From NCBI GenBank assembly GCA_951406725.2, contig OX597816.1:60698001-60762000 (forward strand): 64,000 nt of DNA, read 5' to 3'. Positions 4,742 through 61,790 of this stretch are shown here, piece after piece. Source of the DNA: Octopus vulgaris. Taxonomy: Eukaryota. The notes beneath the pieces were generated by a model. It was not told the origin of the DNA and did no database searches. It was given only the letters and a program-made list of their open reading frames with translations. A program made the translations under genes and the position numbers. Position 1 is the first letter of the stretch, and each line of letters starts with the position of its first letter.

Positions 4742-5849
4742 TTCTCGTCTCTTTCTTTCACACACCCCACACCACCAAACTTCAGTCCAACAATGCTGTT
4801 GCAAGTACACTAGCATACATCTGCCAATCCCACACACATAAATACAATAAGTATGCATGCATATGTATACACACACACACACATATATGTTCTTCCAGAC
4901 AAACTTACGCACATTCATACTTTTACATACAAATACAAGAATGTACATACTCACATTCACAAATCCTCTATATGCAAGCACATCAGCATGTGCATCCTGA
5001 ACATGTTGATGTATGTGAAAGTGGACTAACAAAATACAATCTGTTTTACTACATCAGTAACAGTGGATTTTGTCATTACATGTAACTTCCAGTAGATATT
5101 TGCTAATGACAAAGCCCAAAGAGGCTGATATGCCCACTTAGCTATGTCATCACAACTGCTGGACAATTTTCATCTACTACTGTTATATTACTGTGCTTTT
5201 TAGCTCTACACATCCATAAAAAAAACTATCTCAGGATGAATGCTGCAGTAATTCAGGCTTTCAATGATGCACATGCTTTAAATATGATATATACATTACT
5301 ATTTTAAACTAATATTGCTTCTGTCACACATAACAAATATGAATGGCTGTGTGATAAGTAGCTTGCTTACCAGCCACATGGTTCTGGGTTCAGTCCCACT
5401 GCTGCATGGCACCTTGGGTAAGTGTCTTCTACTATAGCCTCAGGCTGGCCAAAGCCTTATGAGTAGATTTGGTATATATGTGCATGTTGTGTGTGTGTGT
5501 CTGTATGTCTGTGTTTGTCCCCCACCCACCATCACTTGACAACCAATGTTGGTCTATTTACATCTCTGTAATGGCAAAAGAGACTGATAGAATAAGTACT
5601 AGACTTACAAAGAATAAGTCCCATGGTCAATCTGTTTGACTAAAGGTGATGCTCCTGCATGGCCACAGTCAAATGACTGAAACAAATAAAAATAAAAAGA
5701 ATATGTATGTTTGCACATTTATGTACAGGCATAAATTGTTGTGCTAAATACTGTTGTACTATTATATACACTTGCAGCGTGGAAGGTGTTTGTAAGCCAT
5801 TTAAGAAACATACAAAAGCCGTTCGATTCACTTCAACATTTAAATTTAA

Positions 5850-5899
5850 TTTGTCAAAATATTTTCGTCACTAAAATCCGCGACCTGTTCACTGACAAA
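5850..5899 (-). ncRNA. Type I hammerhead motif with G3-C8 core (copy 1)
   Basis: TTTGTCA-GTGAACA-G-GTCGC(GGATTTTA)GTGAC-GAA-AATATT-T-TGACAAA on the minus strand. Confidence 0.65.
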
Positions 5900-5918
5900 A
5901 ATCCGTGCAGCACAGATT

Positions 5919-5968
5919 TTTGACAGTGAACAGGTCGCGGATTTTAGCGATGAAAATATTTTGACAAA
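5919..5968 (+). ncRNA. Type I hammerhead motif with G3-C8 core (copy 2)
   Basis: TTTGACA-GTGAACA-G-GTCGC(GGATTTTA)GCGAT-GAA-AATATT-T-TGACAAA, with one stem I mismatch. Confidence 0.6.
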
Positions 5969-6002
5969 TTAAACTTAAATGTTGAAGTGAATCGCACGGA
6001 TT

Positions 6003-6052
6003 TTTGTCAGTGAACAGGTCGCGGATTTTAGCGACGAAAATATTTTGACAAA
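6003..6052 (+). ncRNA. Type I hammerhead motif with G3-C8 core (copy 3, perfect stems)
   Basis: Stem I TTTGTCA/TGACAAA (7 bp), core GTGAACA, stem II GTCGC/GCGAC, GAA, palindromic stem III AATATT, H17 = T6045. Confidence 0.7.
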
Positions 6053-7166
6053 TTAAACTTAAATGTTGAAGTGAATCGAACGGCTTTTGTGTGTTTCTTA
6101 AATGGCTTACAAACACCTTCCACGCTGCAACTGTTTTCATTCCAGCACACGATCTCAGATCAAATCACTTGCTATGCGAGTACATCTCCGTAATTATATA
6201 CACTTTTTCTTGTAAATCATTCAATCATTCAAGTATGTCTAACATGTATTTTCAGTTACATAGACTGCAGCTAAACACAGGCCTTTATAAAGCATGAGCA
6301 AAATGCTCCCTGTCCAATGGATGATGCTGAGCTGTCAAACATTCAAACCAAATTTTCTCAAAACAACTTGTCCGACCATTCCATAGGCCTGAGAAAAAAA
6401 AAATTAAACCAAATTTAAGACACCAGCAAAAGAAGAAATAAAGATGGACTTTTTTTCTATTCCAAAGAATGCTTTATCGATCACATTCTCACCTGGAATC
6501 GATTTTTGTAATTTTTTCAAGACTTATACACACCCTGATACCCTCAGTATCTACATATCAAATTTGAGCGCAATCGGATGGAGGATGCCCGAGATCCTAG
6601 AAGCCACACACACCCACAGACAAACAGAACGGATTTTATATAAGAGATTACTCGAGTGGATGATTTAAAGAGGCTTGTTGAAAGTGATAATACAACCAAA
6701 TCTTTTAGATGAAGTACAGTAAGAACTGATAAAATAGTTTTTCCAGGCAGTTAACCTCACTTATCTTTTAGTAAGCTGTAAAGTTCAAATATTTTAGTCT
6801 CTGTTCACCATTATGCATCTAGTACATATGTTGTCTTAAGGTGAATGTATGAATTGGATGAACTCTTTAGTAGAAACTAGGTATGTGATAGTATCAGATT
6901 AGATATCTGAGGGCTTTATCCTTTTTCTTTTTTCTTTCACTGGTTTCAGTCACTGGACTGTGGCCATACTAAGGTAATGCTTTCGGGGGTTTTGGTCAAC
7001 TATATCAACCACAATACTTGGTACCAATTTACTTATTTATTCAATCTTGGAGTAGAACAAAAGTAAACTAGACATAGGGGCAGGAGGTGGTTAAGCAACC
7101 TACAAGAAACTAATACAGCAAGGTATTTTTGCAGCATACAGCACTTTGCTATCAAAAGCCAATATA

Positions 7167-23678: not shown

Positions 23679-23783
23679 ACATGAAGTTTATATAACCCAT
23701 ATTAAAAACAGTTTAGGCCTTAAGACCAAAACATAAGTTACATAGCTAGAATTTGTAAAATTAAAGATTATTTTTTCCTGTAC

Positions 23784-24550
23784 AGATGCATCCTCATGTG
23801 AACGTGACTTGGGTGTTATTGTCGACAGTGATTTGCGTTGGACAAAACACATCGCTAAAATTGTCAAGAAGGCTGAGGGTGTCTTGGCATCACTCACCAA
23901 ATCCTTTGTGAGCCGCTCTCCGGCTATCTATCTGCGGCTTTATATAGCTATGGTAAGACCTCACCTGGAATTTGCATCACCGGTCTGGAACCCCTATCTT
24001 GCCCAGGATATCAATCATCTGGAAGCTGTTCAGCGATGTGCAACCAAAAGAATACCCTCCATCAGGCATTTGCCATATCCTGAACGCCTTACTTTCCTGG
24101 GCATGGACACATTGAAACTCCGACGTCTGGCAGCTGACTTGGCAGATACCCATAAAATTATCAACCATCGTACAAACAATAACTCTGAGCACCTTTTCAA
24201 ACTCCACCCATCTAACACCCTGTGGACATATTTACAAAGTCAGAAAACAGCACAGCTCCCATGACTTCAGGAAATATTTTTTCACGCTGAGAGTTGCTGA
24301 ATCATGGAACAAACTGCCGGCATCAGTTGTTAGTTGTCAGAGCACTGCATCCTTCAAGACTTCCAAGCTTTCTGAGATTCGCCAACACTACACCTGATTT
24401 TCTCCCCTCCATACACACACAAGCATGTATCTGACTCATACATTGTTCGCTTTCCAGACATTTTTACATTACTGCATGTACTTTATATGCACTTTCTGAC
24501 AAGATGTGGTGCACCTGAGCACTGTATACAATAATTTCATTATCATTATA
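23784..24550 (+). mobile_element. 5'-truncated CR1-group LINE
   Basis: Translation DLGVIVDSDLRWTKHI...VRPHLEFASPVWNP is homologous to the C-terminus of ORF 58513-60216; frameshifted; TTA-type tail. Confidence 0.9.
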
Positions 24551-49577: not shown

Positions 49578-50098
49578 AACTTGGTCCGTTAATTTGATAC
49601 CTCTGCAGCCAGCCCTCTAGGGCATCTCCTTTACCCTTGTAGCAGTTGGTGATGTGACTGTTAGGCCAGTTATTGGGTTCACATATACAACCTGATTGAT
49701 TATGAGAGTGACTAGCATATGAGTTGCTTCACCAGTTATCACTCTACCAGTGAATGTTCCTAATGGCTCAGCTGTCTTCTCCACTTTCTTATCTTTAGTT
49801 TTGTTTTCACAAATACAGCTGTCAACTTCAATGGTTGGTCCTTTTGTTGGGTCTACTTGCAACACACCCTTTTTGTTCCAGGCATTCTCTTCATTTAGTA
49901 AACGTTGAGGTAGCATTTCCATATCTCTTTTTCCAGTGTCAAGACATGTACATTACTATCATTCTACTACATACAATTCACAAGGCTTACTGACATTTTC
50001 TCTCTTTTATACTGTTCAGTCATTTGAAACACATATGATTACAGATATTTTCTATTCAGGTAACACATATTTGAAATTTTATTGCTTTTAGGCTAACT

Positions 50099-50585
50099 AT
50101 GAAGATATTAGGATTAGAGTTTGCTCCAGTCTTCATTCCTCTTGAAAGACGTATACAGACAGCTTTTGTCTTTCTATGGACACTGTGTTTCATATGTTTG
50201 GGCTTTGGAAGTCTTGCCTTCTTCATCTACCTCTTATTCACTGAATACTATTTCATACCTCTGGCTTATTTAATATGGTACATCTATGACTTCAACAAAT
50301 GTGAGCAAGGAGGCCGTCGTCTTCTGTGGCAATTTAACAATCCTGTTTGGAAATACTTTGCTGATTACTTTCCTATAAAGCTCATCAAGACAGCAGAGCT
50401 TGATCCATCCAAAAACTATATAGTTGGTTTCCATCCACATGGAGTCATGTGTGCTGGTGCCTTTGCAAACTTTGCAACAAATGGAACAGGTTTCAGCCAA
50501 ATTTTCTCAAATATGCATCAATATTTGTGTATCCTAAAAGGACAGTTTCACTTTCCATTCTACAGAGATCTTCTGATGACTACTG
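50099..50585 (+). CDS. MOGAT2: DGAT2/MOGAT-family acyltransferase, first coding exon
   Basis: MKILGLEFAPVFIPLERRIQT..., a TM segment, YFP and the catalytic HPHG motif. Acceptor TTTTAG at 50091 implies an upstream UTR exon. Donor G|GTGAGT, phase 1. The paralog assignment is only approximate. Confidence 0.93.
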
Positions 50586-53070
50586 GTGAGTACCTTTACT
50601 ATTTTTCTCTTTTTTTTTTTTTTTGATGCATGGGAGAATTGAAAAAAAATCCATGTTAAATCCTTATAAATGTATTAATATTGGTTAAGGTAATTGACAT
50701 TTCATTAAAAAATACATTTTTATAGCAAATTAGAGGAAGAATATCACCACCCATAATCTTTCTCAGGGCCTCCAAGATTAGTGGCAGGAAAATATACGAA
50801 GAAACTGGAAATCTGGTTTGAATTATTGCAACAGAGTCGAACTTTACTAAAAGTACCTAAAAGCTAGAAATAGAATTAAGCCAGTAGATAGATTAAGTTT
50901 TTACCCAGTTAATTTTCCTGGTATACAGAACAAAAATAATTGCTTTGGTTCTAAAAAGACTACCTGTAGTTTAAGGAATGTTGAATTGTAATTAAACATA
51001 TGTATGACCAAAAATATAACATAAAGACCTAGTTTTTGGTGATGCAGCTGCACTAATAAAAATGTAACTTTAAAATGTAAGGTTTATGGCTTTATAGCTT
51101 TTTTCTGGAGATACTCATACAAATAATCTACAACACTGTATGGCAAGATAAGAGCAAGAGTACCAAGCCACACTGAACCTATGAACCATTCCCAGGAATC
51201 TATGGATCATAACCTGCAAGCTGAGTATTAGCCACATCAGCCTCATCTGTATCTGAAAGGGCCTGAAATGGATGACACCTACAAACAACTTACTTGGTGG
51301 CTTTTACCCACCAGTGCAATATCTGCAAAACTACTTTTGGAAAATCAAAATGTTTCTTTGTGCATAGTATAAACAAGCTTCCACTGCAGTGGAGCCTACT
51401 AGTCTTTGCAAAGAGAGTTTCTACTAACTTTTCAGAAGCCTTTTAACTACCATTCCTCAACCAAGAGGGCTGAAAAAGCTTCCATGTTAACCTTGTACTT
51501 CACCAACTCAGCACTGTATCAGCTCTATAAAACTACTCCATTGTATCAGACTTGTCACATTTGCAATTTCTACATATGAAACACTCTCTGATTACTTTAA
51601 CCCTGTAAATGATGTCCTTTTCATTACCTTCAAAAGTGCTCAAGAACATTGTTTTATCCTTGGTAAACTCTTCAATTTATCTGACAGGGACCTATCCTAA
51701 TTTTTGTAAAGGGGCTACAATGTGTCCCTATACTCATGCCTCTTCTCCCTGATCAGCAGCCTCTGCCAAATGCACATAAACTGACATCTTACAAGTCATA
51801 GAAACAATTGTTACAATCAATCCTTCCATTTGCTTGTCTCTCTCTCCATTTTTCAGAGACCGCTGGAATATCGTAGAACCAGAGTTATTCAATGAGCTTT
51901 TGGCTTTATACCTTTTTATTCTCACCCTTGAGAACTTTAGTGAAAGCAGTGCTATTACAGCTGTAATTAAAGCTTCTGGACTTGTATGGCATGAGATCTT
52001 CAAGCACAGTTGCTCACCTATGCACTACACTTGTCACATATCTCTAGAATTGGAGGCTTTCTGACAAATTGCATTATTGTCTTGTGTGCCAGGAGGGATT
52101 TCCCTGAGTCAAACTCTGGTGTAGACCAGTGATTCACCATTCTTAATTCTGTGCATTTATGATTTAGTTGCAATCAATTCTAAACAAAATACTCTGCTGT
52201 GCAGATGATACTATCATTTCTTAACTTTTTCGCATAAGCATTATCTCCATGCAACCTAAATGCTTTGTGCCAGAATTGCTCTGACTTTATAAGCAGAAAT
52301 TTTGGGAGCAATCTTCAAAAAGGAAATGAAATAGCACTGTACAAACTACAAGCTTTCCCACCTCCAGTATTACAGCAGAACCTATATGTCTTTACAAAGA
52401 GGATTTCTGCTAACTTTTCAAAATCCTTCTAACCATCATCCATCAACCAAAAGGAATGATTCTTAAAAGCACAAAGACATGGTTTTTATGGATACCAAGT
52501 GAACAAATTTGTACTTTGCCCTTTCAGCACTTGAATGACACCTAACCATGAGAGATCAATGAAGATCTCTCATGGTGACTTCATATATCCAAGTTTGCCA
52601 AAATTGCTTCATAAAGACCAGATTTTCTGTTCAGAGCCAGATAATACTTCAGCCTATATTTTTAAATATTTGTAGAAGTTGATCAGAAAATGTAAGGTGG
52701 TGCCCATAACATTTGTAACCAGTCTCAGACTTGTGAAACGGATGCAGTAGATGTTCAGTTTGAACATTTATAGGTCAATGCTTGCAAGAAAAGTATGTAT
52801 AAGGAAGTGGATTCCAAATTGATGCAGTCCTGCTCCTGGAGTTGTGGGACTGGGAGAAGTGTTTAATGTAGGGTTGGGAAGAAGAGACAAAATATGTGTG
52901 CAAGATGGGATGGAGAAAAATAGAAAAGTACAAAAAAAAACAACAATATTATTTAAATCTTTCAAACCCTACTCCACATCAAGCAAGTCCATGTGTGTGA
53001 GAGTGAGAGAAAAATCATTATTTACATTATTAATATTTGACAGATATTTGTCCTCATTTTGTTTGTTGTT

Positions 53071-58437: not shown

Positions 58438-60250
58438 TAAATAATAATAATAATAATAAACATTGTGTACAGTGCTCAGGTGCACTACAACTCATCGAAA
58501 GTGTATATATAATCAGGTGTAGTTTCGACGGATTTCGGGAAGCATGAGGGCCTTAAAGGATGCAGTGTCATGGCAGTCAACAACTGACGCAGGCAGTTTA
58601 TTCCATGCTTCAGCAACTCTGAGTGTGAAGAAATGTTTCCGAAAGTCATGGGAGCTGTGTTGTTTTCTGACTTTGTGGGCATGTCCACGTGTGTTAGACA
58701 CATGGAGATCAAAAAGGTGTTCAGTGTTGTTATTGGTGAGGTGGTTGACAACTTTGTGGGTGTTTACCAAGTCCGTCGCCAGACGCCGGAGCTTCAGTGA
58801 ATCCATGCCCAGGGAAACAAGGCGCTCAGAATATGGTAGGTGTCTGATGGAGGGTATGCGTTTGGTTGCACGTCTCTGAACAGATTCCAGGAGGTCAATG
58901 TTCTGAGCAAGATAGGGGTTCCAAACTGATGATGCGAATTCCAAGTGTGGTCGTACCATAGCTGTATACAGTTTTAAATAGATGGCTGGAGAGCGGCTAA
59001 CAAAAGTCTTGCTGAGTGATGCCAAGACACCCTCGGCCTTCTTGACAATTTTAGAGATATGCTTTGTCCAACGCAAATCACTGCTGACAGTGATGCCTAG
59101 GTCACGCTCGCAAGAGGATTTCTTGATATCAGTGTTGTGGAGGGAGTATGTGGACGCAGGGTTTTTTCTCCCAAAATGCATGGTGGTACACTTGTCCACA
59201 GCCAGTTTCAGTTGCCAGTCTGTGATCCATTGCTGCATTGTGTCCAAGTCTGATTGCAGGAAAGAGCTGTAGACAACAGGATATGTCCTCTTGATTTCAA
59301 GGTACAGCTTGATGTCGTCTGCATATTTTAATACTGTGGCATTCTTTAAATTTGCCTCTATGTCATTAATGTATGCCACAAACAAGAGGGGACCAAGAAC
59401 AGATCCCTGTGGTACACCCGATGACATCTCATATGGTGTAGAATGCTGTCCTAGAACTGTGACTACCTCCTTTTGGTTGAGAATGAAGGACTTCAACCAG
59501 TTAAAAAGGTCATCCCTCACACCCATTGCAGAGAGTTTCACCATAAGCCTTTTGTGTGGCACAGAGTTGAAAGCCTTAGCAAAGTCAAGGTAGACAACAT
59601 CCACCCATGAGCCACTGTCAGTGATCTGAGTAATGTCCTCAAGGAACTCGACAAGCTGATCACTGCAGCTGGAGTTAGGGACAAATCCATATTGTGAGGG
59701 TCGGATGAGACTGTGTGAGCTCCAGAAGTTCCAAAGTGTTTCTCTGACACACGATTCCATCAGTTTTGCAATACAGCTAGTGAGACTGACTGGGCGATAG
59801 TTGACAGGTGATGTACGGTCGCCCTTCTTGAACAGAGGAATGACACTGGCAGTTTTCCACTGTTCCGGAGTAGCACCATTGTTGAGACAGTACTGGAAGA
59901 AAGTAGAGAGCTGGTGTAAAAGGAAGTACCTGCCACGTTTGAGAAGCAGGTATGTAACTCCATCAAGACCAGGGGAGGCATAGTTGCGCTTATTTTGAAG
60001 GTGACGTCGCAGCATTGCAGGTGTAAATTCCATAGTTGTTATGGAATTTGCTGTTAGAGATGGCGAAGATGGCACATTTTGACTTTCAACAGTGAATATG
60101 TTTGCATAGCACTCGGCAATGAGTTCTGCGCATTCCTTGGGGTCGTCAGTGATCTGGTTTGTGTGAGGGTTGCGAAGAGGGCCCACTGGAGAGTGAGGTC
60201 TCTGCTTCGAATGCACATATTTCCAGAAAACCTTGCTGTCAGGATTGGCT
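58438..60250 (-). mobile_element. 5'-truncated young CR1-group LINE, antisense in a MOGAT intron
   Basis: Uninterrupted RT ORF, short 3' UTR and (TTA)n tail at 58438-58459. Confidence 0.93.
58513..60216 (-). CDS. LINE ORF2 remnant (reverse transcriptase domain, no endonuclease)
   Basis: [37 protein letters not shown] and C-terminal TRGH...FFTLRVAEAWNKLP. Confidence 0.9.
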   Translation of the reverse strand: MHSKQRPHSPVGPLRNPHTNQITDDPKECAELIAECYANIFTVESQNVPSSPSLTANSITTMEFTPAMLRRHLQNKRNYASPGLDGVTYLLLKRGRYFLLHQLSTFFQYCLNNGATPEQWKTASVIPLFKKGDRTSPVNYRPVSLTSCIAKLMESCVRETLWNFWSSHSLIRPSQYGFVPNSSCSDQLVEFLEDITQITDSGSWVDVVYLDFAKAFNSVPHKRLMVKLSAMGVRDDLFNWLKSFILNQKEVVTVLGQHSTPYEMSSGVPQGSVLGPLLFVAYINDIEANLKNATVLKYADDIKLYLEIKRTYPVVYSSFLQSDLDTMQQWITDWQLKLAVDKCTTMHFGRKNPASTYSLHNTDIKKSSCERDLGITVSSDLRWTKHISKIVKKAEGVLASLSKTFVSRSPAIYLKLYTAMVRPHLEFASSVWNPYLAQNIDLLESVQRRATKRIPSIRHLPYSERLVSLGMDSLKLRRLATDLVNTHKVVNHLTNNNTEHLFDLHVSNTRGHAHKVRKQHSSHDFRKHFFTLRVAEAWNKLPASVVDCHDTASFKALMLPEIRRNYT

Positions 60251-60507
60251 GCTATGCACTTTGCTTACGTTTCTTTACATTCTCAGTTCAAGTCTTTTCG
60301 AGTCGCCAACGTCTTTTTCCAATATCACCGTGTGATACTTTGGATAAGTATTTTTAATCTTAGCATTGAGTCATTTAATGCTTTGTGAGTGAAATTTGCT
60401 ACATGAAAACTGTTCAGTAGCCTGCAAGGATCGTTCATGTCGCGGAGTAATGAACTTAATCTGTTGTCTAGTTTAACAAGAAGGCAGCGAATTGATAACC
60501 TTTAGAG

Positions 60508-61790
60508 CATAGCTTCCCAAAGTGGGTGATATCGCCCAGCAATGGGTGATTTCAACTTAGAGGTGGGCGAATGGCTAATTTCTAGAAAAGGTGGGCGATC
60601 TGAACATTTTGTAGGTGACAACGAATTTTAGAAAGTAAGTCTGCATTTGCTTATATCTAGGTATACCTAGAATAAGGATGCACTTACATCGATTTGACTA
60701 CTCGGATGAGATGTCGGTTTGTATTAAAAAAGCGGACTTGTTTATTGAATATTTTTGTTGCAGTCATTGAGACGGTTGTCATGTGTACTAAAAATAGCAG
60801 CCAAATAGGCCTAAGCTTTAAATCACATTCTACTACAATTTTTTTTTTTTTTGCATAATCGTATGAAATCCGGCATATAGAATTCAAATTCACAAGCATT
60901 TTCTGAAAACTCTGAAAAATAAAAAAAGTTATGAGGGGTTACAGGCCGTGCATAATTCTGTAGTTTCATATCAAAACACAAGTGCTGTTTTCAGGATGTT
61001 GACAAAATGTGCAGCCACATACAAAACGACAACTTTGAAATTGTGCTTCTTGACTGGGTGAAAATGATCAAACTTCAAACCTCTATAACTTTTTAATAAA
61101 ACATTTTTCTAGAAAAAGTTGAATAATTCAAGCAATTTAGCTTGGAAAGCTATATTAATATGCCAAACTTTAACATTTTTGATAAACTTCAATTTTTGAA
61201 ATGCTGGCAGTCAAACGAACTAGATCTGTATTTGCTCCAGTAGAGACGTGTCATCCAACTCTATTGTCATCCAACTCTATTGTGTTGGATTCTCTTTGGG
61301 AATACCATACTGCCTTTCCAATGCTGCTTGCAGAAATTCGTTTTCACATTTTTCAGTTTACTGATGCCTCCAGTCAAGAAAATTTGTCAACAGTGCAATA
61401 GTGATTATTTATTGTTTGGATTTATTCCCTCTCCTCAGAACTGTCAGTTACCAATGTGCCTTCTTTGCTATCAAACATTGACCAATGAAGCGATGAAACC
61501 TTCACGCTTGAAGTATCACTTTGGTGCAAAGCATTCTGACAAGAAGGACAAGCCGTTATCACACTTTTTGCATCTGAGCTCCTCTTTCAAAAAGCAAATA
61601 CAAACATTCAACACACTACCCCAGGAAACTAGGAAACAGGAAAATGATGGGTTGATTGCATCGTACAACATTGCATTGCTTGTTGCTAAGTCTGGGAAGT
61701 CTCATATAATTGGAGAAACGTTACTTTGCCCAGTTTTGAAGAGGTTTTGTCAACCATTATGCACAAAAAACTCAATAACATTATGAAGAC
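60508..61790 (+). mobile_element. hAT (Buster/Charlie-type) transposon 5' remnant
   Basis: 61365-61786 encodes YLLFGF...PMCLLC...EAMKPSRLKYHF..KH and ASYNIALLVAKSGKSHIIGE, the Buster/ZBED5-like N-terminus. Candidate left end CATAGCTTCCCAAAGTGGG at 60508. Other repeats are nested inside. Confidence 0.8.

Follow-up and report, generated by a model that had tools for sequence, protein, structure and literature searches.

At positions 5774-6192 the window (the whole 64,000-nucleotide stretch of Octopus vulgaris DNA that was analysed) contains the end repeat (pLTR) of a Neptune-type Penelope-like retrotransposon (PLE), inserted in truncated and inverted form. As an insertion it is dead and unremarkable, and its features are as follows.

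5761..5773, no strand: left 13-bp target-site duplication, direct repeat with 6193-6205
5774..5908, minus strand: inverted, tail-less pLTR copy; an inverted repeat whose arm pairing (5768-5908) overlaps the duplication
5850..5899, minus strand: hammerhead copy 3, with its G3-C8 core at 5892-5886 and a single G·U in stem II; cleavage predicted 3' of 5857
5910..5993, plus strand: pLTR start, duplicated over 84 bp; the junction is found nowhere else in the genome, and the ends show microhomology
5919..5968, plus strand: hammerhead copy 1, with damage in stem I (A·A) and at G10.1·U11.1; cleavage predicted 3' of 5961
5994..6192, plus strand: pLTR including tail of the Neptune-type Penelope-like element, 199-bp unit
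6003..6052, plus strand: hammerhead copy 2, intact family type; predicted cut after U17 at 6045
6003-6009/6046-6052, plus strand: stem I of copy 2, 7 bp
6010-6016, plus strand: core of copy 2, followed by an extra G at 6017
6018-6022/6031-6035, plus strand: stem II of copy 2, 5 bp, closed by G10.1-C11.1
6036-6038, 6039-6044 and 6045, plus strand: GAA, palindrome (6 nt) and U17 of copy 2
6102..6192, plus strand: first 30 codons of the RT-endonuclease ORF, continued in frame at loci L185, L186 and L197
6193..6205, no strand: right 13-bp target-site duplication, direct repeat with 5761-5773

The 13-bp target-site duplication had already been noted, and non-microsatellite target duplications of 6-14 bp were found at other copies of the family. 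The inverted repeat spans 141 bp (5768-5908 / 5994-6134) at 97% identity, and the two same-strand hammerhead copies, previously described as lying 84 bp apart, indeed belong to an 84-bp direct repeat (5910-5993 / 5994-6077) of 96% identity. Both of the preferred 3' ends, at about 6130-6136 and 6189-6192, fall within the last 91 nucleotides of the insertion (6102-6192), the inverted arm ending at the former and the direct arm at the latter. Elsewhere in the window, a presumably SINE-like repeat occurs just upstream of the insertion (about 5340-5700), and open frames are present at 1999-2919 and 58513-60264 on the minus strand and at 23746-24264, 61244-61786 and 50075-50626 on the plus strand; we take these frames to resemble a mariner transposase, LINE RT fragments, a DNA-transposon remnant and an acyltransferase (DGAT/MOGAT-like) exon.

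A first look for the 199-bp unit 5994-6192 returned 2,142 candidates in the 2.8-Gb genome. Among the best 30 of these 2,142 loci the 3' end is fixed and the 5' end variable, and many carry an inverted partial copy; (TA)n targets were also seen among the copies. Upstream, longer copies cross about 1 kb of sequence rich in microsatellites before reaching an ORF; other copies extend past the downstream end of the unit and enter the ORF start in frame. The 3' ends cluster at about +30 and +90 of the ORF. PLEs have a single ORF that combines a telomerase-like RT with a C-terminal GIY-YIG endonuclease; the ORF upstream of the same pLTR fits this, being represented by long frames of 839 and 1,025 codons with YVDD and GIY-YIG; the Pfam match to GIY-YIG had an E of 1.4e-4 (22.5 bits against a cut-off of 22.6) and that to RVT_1 was weak on the ORF fragment (E 0.07). 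It also carries a C-x3-C-x2-C linker between RT and endonuclease, and this linker, read against the CX2-5CxxC zinc-finger-like motif as defined in PMC8557442, points to a place in the Neptune clade. A pLTR, 5' truncation, an inverted 5' copy and an optional tail were all found, matching the variable 5' ends, inverted copies, pLTR and tail by which PLEs have been described (PMC8557442; PMC11167929) and for which two internal RT start sites account (PMC11167929). The tail is about 55-60 bp in this family, compared with 30-40 bp in published elements. The original prediction of a special tandem hammerhead had overlooked this identity; the motif occupies the standard pLTR ribozyme position of a Penelope-like retrotransposon.

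All three copies of the core GTGAACA are where they had been placed, at 5926-5932 and 6010-6016 on the plus strand and at 5886-5892 on the minus strand, the third being the inverted arm of the same insertion. The GAA, the palindromic AATATT and U17 at 5961 and 6045 were likewise recovered. The proposed 7-bp stem I and 5-bp stem II hold in full for copy 2 and fall short in the others, copy 1 being mismatched and copy 3 having one G·U, and the extra G between A9 and G10.1 had been missed. Copies 1 and 2 differ at three positions, two of them in helices, and the fold z-scores were -3.4 for copy 2, -2.7 for copy 3 and -1.1 for copy 1. The type I hammerhead features found are three helices, U4 G5 A6, A9, G12 A13 A14, A15.1-U16.1 and H17, whereas the consensus C3 and G8 are G3 and C8 in the window family. 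Helix III (6039-6044) is palindromic, as in most relatives, and would permit dimers.

That the likeness to a hammerhead is a chance arrangement within a repeat seems highly improbable. The heptamer GTGAACA by itself is at chance level (12 in the window against 10.9 expected), and an Rfam scan of the window region matched no hammerhead family. A helix-aware descriptor, in comparison, matched copies 2 and 3 in the window, while 60 simulated windows gave 3 matches with a Watson-Crick 3-8 pair. Four related loci whose minimal hammerheads have C3-G8 or U3-A8 likewise gave no Rfam match, and the miss at the window is thus uninformative on the swap. Chance is largely refuted by related elements, which carry canonical hammerheads of the same build at an equivalent place, and by four compensatory pair changes in a sister family.

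Exact 21-base patterns counted across the genome gave 6,133 matches for G3-C8, 213 for G3·G8, 45 for G3·A8, 19 for C3·C8 and none for C3-G8. This answers the call for a genome-wide count: G3-C8 belongs to the whole family and not to the window locus alone. The predicted covariation at 3-8 among related families was also found, with C-G in six, U-A in one and G-C here. Twelve related ORFs were identified in metagenome contigs and the DNA 3' of the ORF was examined for ten of them; C3-G8 was found in five (L106, L107, L111, L113 and L116) and U3-A8 in one (L110), and no clear hammerhead was seen in the other 4/10. The intact C3-G8 motif of L116 lies on the minus strand, upstream of the ORF. Among these Neptune-like metagenome elements, the U3-A8 core is at L110:1239, and L107:4973 apparently has U15.1-A16.1.

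The closest comparison comes from a sister family in the same genome, which is young and has an intact 1,312-codon ORF, 59% identical over the aligned part. Its motif, present in both pLTRs of locus L179, has C3-G8, an A9C change, the same extra G and U17. Relative to the window family there are compensatory changes at 3-8, in stem I, in stem II and in stem III (15.2-16.2). Stem III is non-palindromic in the sister family (L178-L183, e.g. L179:1637 and 6225). In a quick protein tree (midpoint root, one very long branch) the two families are sisters (SH-aLRT 97) among C3-G8 lineages; because the pair nests there, G3-C8 appears to be the derived state. The sequence comparisons thus support the motif as a homologue of the type I hammerhead with a natural, derived G3-C8 pair, and U17 is likely to be ancestral in the window family.

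Within the family, G3-C8 or a state derived from it by simple decay is found both in the oldest copies (terminal branches of 7-10%) and in the youngest, and among further old copies the core is retained in 5/6, with C8 in all five. Of 8 loop II positions, 4 show subfamily-fixed changes, as do 0-1 of the 42 positions in core and helices; against non-helical non-coding positions the Fisher p was 0.003-0.03, in a test that spans only about 10% divergence and in which loop changes may be non-independent. As a separate observation, an unrelated Penelope-type RT fragment (L051:3269-3841) adjoins a copy of the family and has a canonical-core hammerhead nearby (L051:6045, plus strand).

At 213 copies, G3·G8 outnumbers C3, its strand-equivalent counterpart at position 3, by a factor of 11, and flanks are unrelated among the G8 copies examined. 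For both reasons G3·G8 likely spread by transposition. Within one mid-old subfamily the G8 copies are scattered, with weak branch support (71/181 copies were long enough); a figure of 17/35 obtained with a G8 query is biased by that query. G3·G8 as a surviving ancestral intermediate was considered and found unsupported, the oldest copies having C8 or T8. An older subfamily (L118-L147) includes many G3·G8 copies and some with C11.1G, 21/30 of its loci being on one contig (C16), and at L121 both arms of a single insertion differ at position 8. The single mutant C3G, which is equivalent to G3·G8, abolished cleavage in a PLE hammerhead (PMC11167929). Since 213 copies at unrelated sites carry an allele that was inactive when made in the laboratory, cleavage appears to be dispensable.

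The 5' ends of the copies bear on the same question. Directly before the fixed start motif, 1,195 matches have G and 198 have A; a further 1,458 have C/T, which is mostly templated. All of the 20 sampled G copies (L248-L267) begin exactly there with unrelated DNA upstream, although in 9/20 the G could derive from the inverted arm. RTs are known to copy caps, and the extra G would be a copied cap at a transcription start located 23 nt before G3. An intron end at the pLTR start was also considered: branch-point/acceptor-like sequence lies upstream, and splicing may occur there, but this candidate was rejected as 20/20 copies share one G and no exon. At unit positions 52, 53 and 54 the start counts are 23, 54 and 27, so that at most 54 copies begin at the predicted cut. 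Among 25 cut-site starts examined, 7 proved to be false ends and about 5 could be traced to stem I microhomology; such microhomology or internal mutation explains part of the excess. The counts at positions 55 and 56, 226 and 119, could not serve as controls; all 6 position-55 examples examined carry a propagated 2-nt insertion. With about 1,200 starts at the probable cap site against at most 54 at the cut, integrated cDNA seems to have been made mostly from uncleaved RNA. In one insertion (L236/L237, on contig C7) both arms start exactly at the predicted cut, with short repeats of the cut-site start between the arms, and it possibly came from cleaved RNA.

Such observations lend some weight to the proposal that the motif has lost its catalytic activity and survives as a relic or a protein-binding fold, in which the helices and the 3-8 pair are kept for RNA folding and not for chemistry. 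The spread of G3·G8, a main copy source of uncleaved and probably capped RNA, and the lack of a clear excess of ends at the cut site are all in its favour, as is the sister family, whose core is also broken (A9C). Moreover, cleavage was dispensable in vitro in a studied PLE, with no RNA-seq ends at the site in the examined part of that report (PMC11167929). Against it, the 3-8 pair forms solely in the active fold and is nevertheless Watson-Crick in all three natural combinations. G3-C8 is found in the oldest as well as the youngest copies, G3·G8 remained the less common allele of a single mid-old subfamily, and almost no change in core and helices became subfamily-fixed. A dead relic is therefore a possible but doubtful reading.

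The tandem pair at the window was originally thought able to fold as an intramolecular dimer through the palindromic stem III, and the analysis speaks against this in several ways. The junction occurs once in 2.8 Gb and joins two near-identical 6-mers. For positions 5915-6060 the dimer fold has -20.9 kcal/mol against -27.6 kcal/mol for the best fold (6.7 above it), with a stem III probability of about 0.01; when the RNA spans the entire insertion, the dimer fold has -165 against -251, a cost of 86 kcal/mol imposed by the 141-bp hairpin. These fold models leave out tertiary contacts and Mg, so the isolated 146-mer may still cleave weakly in vitro. A selected intramolecular double hammerhead (5919-6052) for processing a host or element transcript has a feasible topology, with stem III at 6 bp, and dimers of minimal PLE hammerheads do cleave weakly in vitro (PMC4209133). 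It is nonetheless very unlikely here, given the unique junction, the position of copy 1 as the most damaged copy, the low stem III probability and the hairpin that wins in read-through RNA. A functional role of the tandem at this locus is thus unlikely, and the 84-bp tandem was likely produced by a template slip, as an accident of insertion. Propagating tandem units with a complete hammerhead in each, as in a retrozyme, were not found at this locus, where the junction is single and copy 1 damaged. Two other loci contain arrays. One (L053:904-3594, contig C28) has 16 tandem units of about 170 bp with a G3-C8 hammerhead in each; it is retrozyme- or satellite-like and has a C-to-T change in stem I in 8/16 units. 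L202 has a similar array.

Taken together, we consider it reasonably probable that the locus is a truncated, inverted pLTR insertion whose family-wide, derived G3-C8 hammerhead is likely to cut no more than weakly, in dimeric form or assisted by protein, and is not required at every jump. Transcripts would start, capped, 23 nt upstream of G3. The motif would then belong to the 5' UTR, where cleavage after U17 would strip the cap from the ORF message. Reverse transcription would have two starting points within the ORF's first 90 nt and would copy uncleaved RNA for the most part, and template switches at the cDNA end probably made both the inverted arm and the 84-bp duplication. U17, likely ancestral, would have permitted G3 without a G3-C17 trap. 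A G3-C8 variant was found to be more active with G17 than with C17 (PMC3884650), a result that suggests why U17 may matter. Two points speak against strong activity: the folding model pairs G3 with U17 at a probability of 0.6, and the extra base is G, compared with H in the published consensus.

A bolder version of this reading, which we put forward only tentatively, is that the motif is a working natural G3-C8 hammerhead, reached via a non-cutting mismatch stage that still retrotransposed and was allowed by the ancestral U17. Situated 59 nt behind the capped start, it would cleave slowly, removing the cap from the RT message of the element itself and so acting as a brake, not maturing the transposition template. 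If this were true, thousands of dated copies (G3-C8, G3·G8 and cap-marked 5' ends) would record what PLE hammerheads are for.

Whichever reading holds, the family represents a real, family-wide core variant of a known ribozyme class in a known retrotransposon class, as judged from its sequences. The G3-C8 family bears on the role of hammerheads in PLEs and supplies natural wild-type, mismatch and canonical relatives. It also shows that core-motif searches undercount natural ribozymes; they would overlook the A9C core of the sister family as well. As had been anticipated, the swap would escape searches based on CUGANGA: a descriptor of the type given in PMC4209133 and PMC8557442 would miss G3-C8.

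The pLTRs of metazoan PLEs carry minimal type I hammerheads (Cervera and de la Peña 2014, PMC4209133), with which the window family shares the pLTR location, the extra nucleotide between 9 and 10.1, G10.1-C11.1, a palindromic helix III and the occurrence mostly as single truncated copies and opposite-strand pairs. A palindromic stem III and dimer action have already been described for these ribozymes (PMC4209133). The differences lie in the core, which is G3-C8 here and only CUGA and UUGA (C3-G8 and U3-A8) in the 56-motif alignment of the supplement, and in the extra base, G here against H in the consensus of the same supplement. Natural U3-A8 covariants are known (Perreault et al. 2011, PMC3088659; PMC4209133) and represent a compensatory 3-8 change like the one reported here, L110 being one further case; U3-A8 requires two transitions via a wobble, whereas G3-C8 requires two transversions via a mismatch. 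G3-C8 is not reported in the examined text of PMC3088659 and PMC4209133, and a search of the main text of an octopus repeat paper for hammerhead terms returned no mention (PMC13282606). A wider literature search for a natural G3-C8 pair found only engineered cases and U3-A8.

Lünse and colleagues are said to have described many small PLE hammerhead variants, and their 2017 paper could already report a natural G3-C8. Non-LTR retrozymes (PMC7229834; bioRxiv 10.64898/2026.07.22.740005) consist of tandem pLTR-derived units, to which the 16-unit array may be compared; they propagate such units, whereas the 84-bp pair at the window is a one-off within an inverted insertion.

The nearest experimental counterpart is the anole Poseidon element PAc (Frangieh et al. 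2024, PMC11167929). It resembles the window family in having two internal RT start sites at the ORF start, which produce the tail, and uncleaved RNA as the main substrate. In the PLE hammerhead studied there, the engineered C3G/G8C double change partly restores cleavage, and cleavage was not required for insertion in vitro (PMC11167929). The swap is thus the same in both, as a laboratory rescue mutant in PAc and as a natural state in more than 6,000 copies here. The spread of the mismatch allele, together with the starts at the cap site, suggests that the genomic record of this family fits the in vitro dispensability of cleavage for insertion (PMC11167929).
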